Shown here: piece by piece, positions 12,332 to 37,149 of the stretch
Numbering within the stretch: position 1 is the first letter of the stretch
How the letters are laid out: every line of letters begins with the position of its first letter
Position numbers and translations under genes: made by a program
From: Eledone cirrhosa
Taxonomy: Eukaryota
Direction of reading: 5' to 3'
Assembly (NCBI GenBank): GCA_964016885.1
Contig: OZ024763.1
Coordinates: forward strand, 3,720,001-3,784,000
Length of the DNA: 64,000 nt
The notes under the pieces: generated by a model
What the model saw: only the letters and a program-made list of their open reading frames with translations
Databases searched by the model: none
What the model was told of the DNA's origin: nothing

Positions 12332-12594
12332 TTAAAAGTGCCATGTCATCGCAATATTGAGTAACAAAATTATAAACAAAAGCACATGCCCCGCTTTCTG
12401 TTGGTGACCTGACCCTGGCGCATTGCACAAGTCAGTGTCACAGAGTGTAACACAGACAACAGACCAACCTGTAATTTGGCAGAGGGTTGTGTTTTTGGCT
12501 GGATTCAGGTAGTTGAAGATCTTGTATTTATTGATGTTGGTGTTGAAAGAATACTCTTTTTCATTGCAGTCTCTTATTATGATCTCCACTTTAC
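12332..12594 (-). CDS. Terminal exon, C-half of Ly6/LU (three-finger) protein with GPI-type tail; CNAP class (gene B exon 3b)
   Basis: Acceptor ttttattctctattcatgtcccag, phase 1; (G)KVEIIIRDCNEKEYSFNTNINKYKIFNYLNPAKNTTLCQITGWSVVCVTLCDTDLCNAPGSGHQQKAGHVLLFIILLLNIAMTWHF*; five Cys ending CxxxxCN, then a hydrophobic tail. Confidence 0.85.
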
Positions 12595-12938
12595 CTGGGA
12601 CATGAATAGAGAATAAAATACATACACATTTGAATTCTTGGTGTATATATATATATATATATATATATATATATATATATATATAGTAATAATAATAAAT
12701 GTAAACATCGTTTAACATTGATGAGGATAATGATGATAATTATGATATATATATATATCCCACATTGTAAATGTGGTTGGTGTTAGGAAGGGCATCCAGC
12801 TGTAGAAAACCCGCCAGACAGTCCTATGCGAGCAAGACAATCACTCTTGCCTCAAGTGGGAAAAGCCCCGTCCAAACCCATGCAAGCGTGGAACATGGAC
12901 GTTAAACGATGATGATGATGATGATATATATATAGAAG

Positions 12939-12989
12939 AACTTCTACAGGACTAGAACTGTTTCATTCGTGAGAAATCATCAGGAAGCT
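12939..12989 (-). ncRNA. Type I hammerhead ribozyme motif (minus-strand partner of a palindrome)
   Basis: Minus strand agcttc CTGATGA tttctcacgaat GAAA cag-ttctagtc-ctg TA gaagtt. Confidence 0.65.
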
Positions 12990-13036
12990 TCCTGATGATT
13001 TCTCACGAATGAAACAGTTCTAGTCCTGTAGAAGCT
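12986..13036 (+). ncRNA. Type I hammerhead ribozyme motif
   Basis: agcttc CTGATGA t-ttc-tcac-gaa-t GAAA cag-ttctagtc-ctg TA gaagct: stem I 6 bp, core CUGANGA/GAAA, stem III ACAG/CUGU, GUA triplet; U-U at the base of stem II is atypical. Confidence 0.7.
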
Positions 13037-14353
13037 CTGCTATGTATTGAGTACCTTACTGTAGTTACCGCCGATTCAACCCGGAATAACTTATATATAT
13101 ATATATACACACATATATATACACACATATATACATATATATATATATACACATATACACACATATATACATATACACACATATATACATATATACACAT
13201 ATATACACATATATACATATATATATATACACACATATATACACACATATATATATATACACACATATGTTAGGTAATTCGGAAGGAAAAGCAAAGGAAA
13301 AAAGAGTGCTCTATGTATGGAACAGAGCTATTTAATTAGAAAATGAACAACACAACGATGGCTGAGCTCTGGCCGTTTTGACAGCTCTACTACCCTAAAT
13401 ATTGAGTACGCTGGTGCGTTATGGTCCACCTGGTTTCTTACCACACTTTCTTTGTTATATATATATATATATATATATATATATATATATATATATAAAT
13501 ATATATATATATTCAAATATGTATATATATATACAAATATGTATATATATATATATATATATATATATATATATATACAAATATGTATATATATATATAT
13601 ATATACAAATATGTATATATATATATATATATATATATACAAATATGTATATATATATATATACAAATATGTATATATATATATATATATATATATATAT
13701 ATATACAAATATATATATATATATACACAAATATGTATATATATATATATACAAATATGTATATATATATATATATATATATATATATATATACAAATAT
13801 GTATATATATATATATATATATATATATATATATATATATACAAATATGTATATATACATATCCACAGAAATTGAACGAAGACTGCGTTACACTGTCTTA
13901 TGTAATCAGTAACGTAATCCATGATACATTAAAAAAAGACAATATTATATATAAACTGCATTAGGAGAAATTAGTGACTGAAATTACAGAATGTTTATTT
14001 AAGCGATCGCTAACCGAAAGTGTTGACATTTGAAAATTTTAAAGAAGTGAATCTTAAAATAAACAACAAAATTATTTATATTTAATCAAGAATAACGAAA
14101 TTTAGTTGATAAATTATGTAATATTCATTCATTATTTATTCAAAGTAATCCAACTTATTTTACAAACAGGATAAAAAATATATTCTGGACGCAGTCCCAC
14201 ACTTCTTACTTTATTATAGTTTAGATATGTGTGTGTGTATAAATATATATATATATATATATATATGTAAAAGGTAAACAGAAATAACAACACAATTGGT
14301 ACAGTATATGGAAGGTATATATTAGGTTAACACTTGATATAGCAGGAAGAAGG

Positions 14354-14389
14354 TCTTAACGTTTTGGACGTTAGTCCTTCATCAGAAGA
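14354..14389 (-). ncRNA. Minimal hammerhead motif, probably inactive (G12A)
   Basis: Minus strand tctt CTGATGA a-ggac-taac-gtcc AAAA cg TT aaga; palindromic ACGT stem III. Confidence 0.5.
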
Positions 14390-34515: not shown

Positions 34516-35024
34516 GCTGCCTAGAAACTCTGTTGTTCAGTGATTCAAATGAGTGTAGAAAGCTGTGTCTTCATGATGCTTATTACCAAAATCGATAATT
34601 GGTGATTGATACCAATCATTAAAATCGATTATAAACATTATATTCTGGATTCCATGAAATGACCGTACACGAGAACTTTAGGTGATTTTGGCTTTATTCT
34701 TTTTTAACCCTTTAGCATTTAAACCAGTTATAACCAGCCAGAATTCTCTTACCTCTTTCTGTTCAAACCGGCTGTAACAGACCACTCATACTTATGTTAA
34801 GGTATTATTCTCAAAATAAATAATATCAAAATCTCATTGATTCGATACTATTTCAGATACAATAGTAAATATAAAATATTGTAAATGTTAAAAGAGTTGT
34901 GAATATATTTCTTATTTGTCGTTCTTTCTCTCTCTCTCTCTCTCTCTCTCTCTCTATATATATATATATATATATATATAAATATTTTTACATATACATT
35001 TATCTATATAGATGTGTGTGTGTA

Positions 35025-35318
35025 AAAATCTGAAAAGGTCTAAAGCCTGTCTTAAGCCAGAAGGCTCATTTGGCCGGTGCTTATCCCGGTTTCATGGCGT
35101 GAAGCGACTGAGAGTACAAAACTCCCCCCTGGACGGGACACCAGTCCATCACAGCGTTAAACCCCCAGCTATTGCTGGTACTCATTTTCAGCTGAGTATA
35201 CTGGAGCAACATGAAATGAAGTGTTTTGCTCAAGAACACAACACACAACCCAGGAATTGAACTCATGACATTATTGTTGTAAGTCCAACACCCTTACCAT
35301 TAGGCCACATGCCTCCAC
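35025..35318 (-). mobile_element. tRNA-derived SINE
   Basis: Reverse complement of the 22204-22490 family. Confidence 0.75.
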
Positions 35319-36480
35319 TATATATATATATATGTGTGTGTGTGTGTATATATATATATATATATATATATATACACACACACACATATACACATATATA
35401 GGAATATGTTTAACCCCGACGGCCAAGCTCAAGCCGTTTCGATGGCTATTTCTGGACTATATACATACATATACATATATATACATATATATATATACAT
35501 ATATATTCATGTATATATATATATAATGTATATATATATAAATAGAGACAGGATCACAAAGGATATATACATAAAATAAAGGGTAGTCCAAGTAAAAAAA
35601 GTAAACAAGACTAGGTAGTTAGGTAGTCTTGGTAACGATTTTGGAATGCAAAGTGAAGTGTGTCGATATTATATGTGAGTGTAGGTGTATGTGTATGTCT
35701 AAATGTTTTGTAATGTATGAAAGTTAGTGTGTGTTATGCATTTATCCGTTTGGTTTATGGTAGTGGAGCTGTATATCATTTAATGTAAGGGTTTTTACAA
35801 AACAAAAAGCAGATAAAATGGAAACCAAACTTGAAAGAAAACCTAGTATTGAGGTTGATATAATTGACTAAATAAAGCTAGCACACGTTTTTGGTCACAG
35901 TCTAATGACTGAAACACACAAAACCGTAAAAGAATTTCTAGAGGTGAAATGCTTTTGTATTTTATTAATATATAGCGTACATAAATATTTGAATACTTTC
36001 AAGTTATTTAAATAATATATTGTGTAACACATTTTCTTTGTTTTGTATTTGTCATCATTTGCCTTTTATATATGTCTACCACATTGTAGCAGCTTTCTGA
36101 AACTGATAGGATATGATGGTGTATGAGAAGGCCCTGGATTGGATTGGATTGGATACATATCTAACAATATTTAACCCTTTAGAATTTACATTACTCTATA
36201 TTTATAATTGTATTTTCACGTTAAAGGTGGGGTATGGAATTAGAGGAGTTTGGGGATAAAATATCTATAGTGGTAGGTACCCCCAATGACTGGCTGCACC
36301 TGTTATTGGGAGATGCACCCTGCCAAGTATCTCCAAGGCCCATTGAAATGCTCTCTGTCTCTCTCACTATATATATACCATTACCAATGTCAGAAAAACA
36401 CATTTATGAAAGAAATCTGCTGTGTTCTGACCTGAGGAGGACAGGAGGGGCTCAGCCAGGTTTTGGAAAAAATGCCTCAA

Positions 36481-36699
36481 CCCTTTAGCATTTACATTAC
36501 TCTATATATACTATTGTATTTTCACAGTAAAGGCTTTACCTCACATAATATCTCTTATAATATCAAATCTATGAGATTTTGATATTATTTATTTTGAGAA
36601 CAATACTTAACATCAGTATGAGTGGTCAGATACAGCTTGTTTTAACAGAAAAAGGGGAGAGAATTCTGGCCAAATACAGCCGGTTTAAATGCTAAAGGG
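36481..36699. mobile_element. piggyBac-like MITE, unexpanded 219-bp copy (others near 1278, 1740, 15460, 34708, 59300)
   Basis: TIR ccctttagcattta / taaatgctaaaggg; TTAA-like flanks; CCC ends typical of piggyBac. Confidence 0.7.
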
Positions 36700-37106
36700 T
36701 TATATATTTTTGATAGTAATATAGCTAATATGAAGCATTATGAAATATATAATAAATGACTGATAAGTTTCAGAAAGTCGGTAGAATGTGGTAGAAATAA
36801 GTAAGACAACCTCACTAGTGTTGGTGGCATGAATAAAAACACCCGGTCCATGCTGTAAAGTGGTGCTGGTGATAGGAAGGGCATCCAACCAGTATATCAT
36901 TAATGGCAAATTATGGGCACAAAATACAAATAATAATTAAAATAAAATAAAATAAAATTGAATGAAATAACAGTAAATTAAATTAAATTAGATTAAATTA
37001 AAAATAAGATGAAATTCTATTGAGGCTAATTAGTGTGAGAAATTTAAGTTAATTAAAAAGTAAAGAATGTTTACTAAATAAAAATGGTCAAGAAATGGAA
37101 TATTAC

Positions 37107-37149
37107 CTGTCATAAGGAATGTGATGAGAGCAAGATAAACAGCAGCCAT
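37107..37149 (-). CDS. Signal-peptide exon (gene B first coding exon)
   Basis: ATG GCT GCT GTT TAT CTT GCT CTC ATC ACA TTC CTT ATG ACA G|gtaata = MAAVYLALITFLMT, phase 1; splicing to 20909 gives MAAVYLALITFLMTVSASNG-LLCYSC, a plausible signal peptide and cleavage site. Confidence 0.75.

Follow-up and report, generated by a model that had tools for sequence, protein, structure and literature searches.

Proteins of the Ly6/uPAR (LU) family usually diversify by whole-gene duplication, and the swapping of their fingers is known as a laboratory method for mapping specificity, for instance in Bouncer and Sleepless. A described arrangement close to the one reported here is the medaka bouncer locus Bncra/Bncrb, an LU gene in which a common first exon is followed by two duplicated last exons kept in many species (PMC10267171). 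In medaka, each last exon encodes an entire LU domain and the glycosylphosphatidylinositol (GPI) signal is absent from one form, whereas in the octopod Eledone cirrhosa we observed a gene in which the cut falls within the domain and both tails are hydrophobic. This gene, termed gene B, lies on the minus strand of a 64,000-nucleotide stretch of DNA that was analysed as a whole (the window; NCBI GenBank assembly GCA_964016885.1, contig OZ024763.1, here also C24, positions 3,720,001 to 3,784,000 of the forward strand; genome of 3.0 Gb), next to a similar gene A. Very probably, gene B splices one exon for the N-terminal half of the domain (N-half) to either of two last exons for the C-terminal half (C-half), namely the distal one, whose junction was seen, and likely also the proximal one. 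The outcome would be two likely GPI-anchored and likely three-finger proteins with finger 1 in common and the remaining binding surface different.

Drosophila Quiver/Sleepless (PF17064; PMC4735452) belongs to the nearest profile family, with a signal peptide, ten cysteines and a tail like those of gene B. However, the gene B homologues score below the Pfam cut-off, have longer loops and show no sign of orthology, and channel or receptor binding is suggested here by analogy. Splice forms are also known for uPAR and CD59 (PMC2289218, PMC9214515); these are reported to be shortened or not GPI-anchored, with no second complete half-domain as here. Human LYNX1 and SLURP2, formerly regarded as isoforms, proved to be distinct transcription units (PMC4839075). 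The main text of a survey of LU genes in invertebrates published in 2026 contains none of the terms octopus, cephalopod, isoform, splic- and exon (PMC13719153), and a literature search for papers on these loci or on LU genes with alternative C-half exons, with subscription journals and supplements outside its scope, found none. The exchange of half an LU domain by alternative last exons, in two adjacent genes, is unusual and was not found in print; the splicing mechanism itself is ordinary. Novelty is also limited by the commonness of last-exon duplication, by the two choices per gene and by the presence of the isoforms, unremarked, in RefSeq. In Caenorhabditis elegans, the Ly-6-related gene odr-2 (in work attributed to Chou et al. 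in 2001) is said to produce isoforms that share one half; in this mirror image of gene B, the C-terminus is constant and the N-termini are alternative.

The exons of gene B are as follows.

37107..37149, minus strand: signal-peptide exon, 43 nt from ATG to AG/GT, 14 codons plus 1 nt with a phase-1 donor, read from the sequence
20733..20909, minus strand: common N-half exon, 177 nt between CAG and GT, with Cys1-5 at spacings of 2, 8, 18 and 10
17637..17908, minus strand: proximal last exon (C1), 272 nt, with Cys6-10, CN, a 31-residue tail with a hydrophobic stretch, and a stop
12332..12594, minus strand: distal last exon (C2), 263 nt, with Cys6-10, CN, a 30-residue tail with a hydrophobic stretch, and a stop

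The initial annotation, made from the sequence alone, had proposed that the signal and N-half exons can be joined in frame to either C-half exon, and this was borne out: all four exons lie where it had placed them, with AG/GT ends, a CAG acceptor in front of each of the two C-half exons and phase-1 joins throughout. Both splice paths are open, and the computed products of 163 (proximal) and 160 (distal) amino acids each have the predicted ten cysteines, CN and a hydrophobic tail. The signal exon is the sole non-overlapping candidate with a strong donor among four found in a scan of 20910-57600, and a similar peptide of the same length opens the Octopus sinensis proteins P0012 and P0019. A tandem array of nine copies of a 44-nt unit (20958-21361) is located just ahead of the N-half acceptor.

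Evidence for splicing was sought in four public sequencing runs (X1 to X4) from a single study, none of them recorded as RNA, by examining contigs over the distal exon region 12285-12643. In run X1, the match of a 339-nt contig to the genome ends at the distal-exon acceptor and leaves 27 loose letters, which equal 20735-20761, the end of the N-half exon, and match nowhere else in the window. The contig thus represents the junction 20733>12594, which spans 8.1 kb, has GT and AG ends and skips the proximal exon entirely. This distal junction, the most doubtful of those that the initial annotation had anticipated, occurs in transcripts of gene B. Because the contig carries this junction, run X1 behaves as complementary DNA (cDNA). 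The contigs of runs X2 and X3 read through the distal acceptor into the intron, unspliced, as expected of genomic DNA, while run X4 gave no contig over the distal exon and is uninformative.

The proximal exon is also represented in the runs: 48 of 48 sampled words of 17400-17908 are present in run X1, and all four runs contain the sampled words. The start of the X1 contig bears on the second junction. If assembly words were 31 letters long, as assumed since the shortest records are 31 long, branching at k=31 predicts that the contig opens with 29 letters of the N-half exon when the competing path is the proximal exon and with 26 when it is the unspliced intron; the contig opens with 29. Since it starts where the branch to the proximal exon is predicted, the proximal junction 20733>17908 is likely to exist in the same run. 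The O. sinensis RefSeq X1 models point the same way, and the alternative last exons suggested by the initial annotation are accordingly supported by the distal junction in the contig together with the contig start and these models.

Gene B has the layout of alternative last exons formed by exon duplication, with a common upstream exon, homologous last exons with their own acceptor and stop, and no private upstream exon. The choice between them is likely the usual race, in which splicing to the near exon, followed by cleavage at a late poly(A) signal 1.15 kb behind its stop, would compete with transcription to the far acceptor 5 kb further. The candidate signals are listed below.

16479..16484, minus strand: candidate poly(A) signal of the proximal exon, the first AATAAA behind the stop in the sequence, 1.15 kb downstream and beyond the 13-nt tandem array at 17310-17629
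12242..12251, minus strand: candidate poly(A) signal of the distal exon, overlapping ATTAAA/AATAAA in the sequence, approximately 80-90 nt behind the stop

The array consists of 24 copies of the 13-nt unit and follows directly behind the proximal stop.

In LU genes, the intron lies at the tip of loop 2, and the Cys4-Cys6 disulfide is the sole link between the two exons (PMC6600238). The initial annotation had defined the exchanged part as the second strand of finger 2, finger 3 and the GPI signal, which agrees with this intron position. Both last exons of gene B keep Cys6 in the same setting, so that each of them would be able to pair with the constant N-half and leave finger 1 undisturbed; a second copy of the last exon can replace the first because only the 4-6 disulfide links the exons and Cys6 is kept. 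Exchanging the last exons would give loop 2 a different tip and replace loop 3 entirely, and the binding partner would change with them. In QVR/SSS, the channel and receptor contacts are located on loop 2 (PMC4735452), and in Bouncer specificity is set by fingers 2 and 3 (PMC10267171). By analogy with Quiver/Sleepless or Lynx, the products may modulate ion channels or receptors at the cell surface, serving two ranges of partners, a role that we regard as possible but rather less than an even bet. The arrangement probably originated by duplication of the last exon alone, before the split from Octopus, and gene A carries a similar pair.

LU domains have the disulfide pattern 1-5, 2-3, 4-6, 7-8 and 9-10. 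Ten cysteines with an asparagine after the tenth are present in both gene B products and in the proximal product of gene A, while the distal product of gene A has eight. The gene structure is likewise that of an LU gene, with a signal exon, two domain exons, phase-1 introns and a last exon that holds the predicted GPI-signal tail; here the last exon is doubled. The tails after CN are 30-34 residues long with a best 11-residue hydropathy of 1.5-3.3, and may hold a GPI signal. In Atlas, the O. sinensis isoform X1 (P0019) lies near QVR clusters in 27 of 30 matches, up to 0.94, and the mature part of isoform X2 at 0.85. One Octopus vulgaris model bears a precomputed PF17064 tag. AlphaFold2 models of the O. 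sinensis isoforms have a mean predicted local distance difference test score (pLDDT) of 50 and 44, and their strand order fits, although their quality does not allow a fold match. With these poor models, Foldseek gave no match at E<=0.001 and VIA-align a best Z of 2.9, neither of which speaks for or against the fold; a profile search for a solved structure and a search for an Atlas structure model also returned none, with no bearing on the fold. A three-finger fold and GPI anchoring are likely for the gene B products, and the proteins appear to be LU-like and quiver-like with long loops, rather than quiver orthologues or consensus LU domains. The window exons are absent from the QVR-family matches in this genome, which number at least 15. 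Two full-length QVR matches have no intron in the domain (C3:117729602-117729889 and C4:316602983-316603267, minus strand) and may be single-exon LU genes or retrocopies.

Counterparts of the gene B isoforms have been modelled in other octopods. A protein search with the distal exon gave ten matches, of which eight are true homologues, and later searches added more; the remaining two (P0002 and P0006) were discarded as chance matches of a repetitive kind. The N-half exon as query among longer proteins returned no homologue candidate. In O. sinensis LOC118760862, isoform X1 (XP_036369732.1) combines an N-half with a proximal-type half and isoform X2 (XP_036369735.1) the same N-half with a distal-type half, and an X1/X2 pair at LOC115224789 is modelled the same way, with a common N-half and a proximal or distal C-half. 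The distal type is also present in Octopus bimaculoides (LOC106879162 X2) and Argonauta hians. Two other proteins, P0003 and P0007, resemble relatives of the distal and the proximal type, respectively. The RefSeq counterparts differ from the locus described here in being automatic uncharacterized models, for whose locus names a literature search found no paper, and O. sinensis has two cassette copies whereas this genome has one within 464 kb. Further, LOC115224789 and LOC106879162 are modelled with a gene A N-half in front. In O. sinensis and O. vulgaris, there are seemingly two copies of the whole A+B cassette, with two versions of each half (P0015, P0019, P0004, P0018, P0020), which may alternatively be haplotypes.

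The distal exon is identical to O. sinensis isoform X2 at 49 of 82 positions and the proximal exon to isoform X1 at 55 of 89, i.e. 60-62% identity between the last exons and their Octopus counterparts, compared with 73% over 56 columns for the N-half exon and its O. sinensis counterpart. By its homologues the window belongs with the octopods, at some distance from O. bimaculoides and O. sinensis. Within the LU part, the distal exon shares 37-40 of 57 residues with its counterparts and the proximal exon 34-35 of 59, while the distal and proximal exons share only 24 of 57 with each other. In a C-half tree, the four last exons of the two genes fall into four groups, each together with its own Octopus counterparts (bootstraps of 87, 90, 88 and 98). 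The tree omitted P0008, P0009 and P0010, which were missed by the cutting rule, and does not resolve the relations among the four exon types. Since each last exon has its own Octopus counterpart, all four predate the split of this lineage from Octopus. Judging from these comparisons, gene B contains a conserved switch between alternative last exons, and the cut lies within the domain.

Several points weigh against this interpretation. The distance from Cys1 to Cys10 is 108-110 residues, compared with 60-90 in the LU consensus; the snail and mussel homologues are about equally long. None of the three single exons submitted to Pfam matched, and four of the eight homologues match QVR (PF17064) at 14-24 bits, all under the Pfam cut-off of 27.3. 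The distal junction is represented by one contig from one run of unrecorded kind, all four runs belong to that one study, and contigs carry no information on transcript level. The contig start could arise identically from any of 45 other intron sites of the form AG/G[ACG], or from a variant base there. Only one of the four tree groups was starred (98/96), the others having bootstraps of 87-90, and for each species pair the retention of the five cysteines and the asparagine exceeds chance only modestly (0.11, 0.04 and 0.03). RefSeq models may also copy one another across species.

The second gene of the window, gene A, was said by the initial annotation to have the same layout of one N-half and two C-half exons. 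The layout stands; the cysteine content does not extend to the predicted distal product, which has eight cysteines and not ten.

62886..63062, minus strand: gene A N-half exon, 177 nt, with the length and cysteine spacing of that of gene B
60132..60397, minus strand: gene A proximal last exon, with Cys6-10, CN and a hydrophobic tail
57667..57896, minus strand: gene A distal last exon, a short form that keeps CN and the hydrophobic tail
L003:6730-6784, minus strand, 6.7 kb beyond the window: likely gene A signal exon, 18 codons plus 1 nt, with AG/GTAAGA

The gene A N-half exon shares 66% identity over 56 columns with its O. vulgaris counterpart, and the proximal exon is identical to O. sinensis LOC115224798 at 33 of 57 positions of the LU part. 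The signal exon is one of 38 candidates of a rule-based scan and was chosen by its likeness to an Octopus signal peptide (the start of P0004); tblastn gave no significant match for it. The distal exon lacks Cys7, Cys8 and approximately 15 residues of finger 3, so that three C-half cysteines remain out of five; part of an O. vulgaris model (P0018), identical at 18 of 29 positions, misses the same two cysteines. Loss of the 7-8 bond is very rare among LU domains (PMC6600238), and the joint loss of both cysteines would fit a 7-8 bond. Between the N-half and proximal exons of gene A, a tandem array of 31 copies of a 72-nt unit (60617-62761) fills most of the first internal intron. The interval between genes A and B at approximately 42000-53000 has a strong AT skew (approximately -0.33) and repeated short matches, and is probably a tandem repeat block.

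Genes A and B could also constitute one combinatorial locus, in which transcripts from the A promoter run through B and the two N-halves combine with the C-halves downstream of them, giving six single-domain proteins and a form with two N-halves. We consider this unlikely, though it is the strongest of the competing explanations. All exons are in phase 1, the six N-to-C joins and the join of two N-halves to a C-half are all open in this genome, and the two N-half exons are equal in length and cysteine spacing. Three RefSeq proteins from two species (P0001, P0011 and P0015; O. bimaculoides and O. sinensis) run from the A signal and A N-half through the B N-half into C1 or C2, and one O. bimaculoides protein combines this A N-half with an A C-half (P0016). 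However, a protein with two N-halves and one C-half has 15 cysteines, an odd number with one half unpaired, and looks like read-through or a (shared) model error. Among the homologue matches listed (7, 7 and 10), no record has an A N-half directly on a B C-half; gene B owns a signal exon; and a join of the A to the B N-half (62886 to 20909) would cover 42 kb here. If such mixing were true, a combinatorial locus with one back half lacking the 7-8 disulfide would amount to a small splice-built octopod repertoire of receptor or channel modulators, with six or more surface proteins.

Another explanation is that a single isoform is relevant and that the other last exon is a relic of a duplicated gene, included occasionally through leaky splicing. 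The contigs give no levels, the proximal junction is not among the contigs seen in this genome, and the distal exon of gene A has lost two cysteines, all of which this explanation would accommodate. Yet both gene B last exons stay open and keep five cysteines, the asparagine, an N-x-T/S before Cys7 and a hydrophobic tail while approximately one third of the residues have changed between species. In gene A, the two lost cysteines are the partners of one bond and were lost together, with the same loss in the O. vulgaris piece. Leakage from a relic is therefore improbable in our estimation.

Even less credit is due to the possibility that an internal donor allows the C-half exons to be joined one after the other into a longer protein, with no alternatives. 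The O. vulgaris protein P0018 does run from the proximal into the distal exon of gene A; it is, however, a 'hypothetical predicted protein' that breaks off within the second exon. Each last exon has its own stop and tail, and the X1 contig bypasses the gene B proximal exon altogether.

Further half-exons were searched for in 464 kb (the window plus 200 kb on each side), which contains no N, by scanning 10,585 open stretches with half-domain profiles derived from homologues of the very exons described here. The N-half profile gave two matches at 82 and 65 bits (next best 10), and the C-half profile four at 96, 83, 76 and 20 bits (next best 9.5). tblastn and motif scans recovered the same six half-exons, two N-half and four C-half. 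Profiles, tblastn and motif scans agree with the initial annotation that the interval from 12.6 to 17.6 kb holds no second N-half (LxCxxC) exon, and an assembly gap hiding separate N-half exons, which the annotation had named as fatal to its proposal, is not seen in this region, given the lack of N and of a third N-half match. Three other matches (L046, L048 and L049) are not LU exons on inspection. That the last exons belong to separate genes, each distal exon with its own N-half hidden by divergence or an assembly gap, would accord with the usual tandem clusters of whole LU genes (PMC6600238), such as the cluster with one N-half per C-half on contig C1, but is scarcely credible with 464 kb free of N, no third N-half match and a distal exon joined to the known N-half, and for gene B it is refuted by the junction in the X1 contig.

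With alternative last exons as the preferred explanation, the animal appears to swap fingers itself, in two neighbouring genes and with four back halves kept across octopod genera. This would constitute a natural chimera experiment, in which finger 1 is constant and finger 3 different. Evolution seems able to treat the two LU exons as independent modules, and in gene A a naturally occurring form lacks the 7-8 disulfide. The repertoire is small, and the finding will be of use mainly to those who study three-finger proteins or the neurobiology of cephalopods.

In comparison, four other LU-like genes in the genome have one N-half per C-half each, a small sample and no census. Three of these form a quiver-like cluster found by motif scan (C1:291979011-292164619, plus strand). 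The fourth, with one N-half and one C-half exon at C24:5480183 and 5484575 on the plus strand, lies 1.7 Mb away and has an altered C-half cysteine pattern. Elsewhere in the window, a segment at approximately 7100-9700 on the plus strand (GC content 46%) contains endonuclease-like, reverse-transcriptase-like and Cys-rich pieces in six-frame translation, which we take to be fragments like those of a long interspersed nuclear element (LINE).

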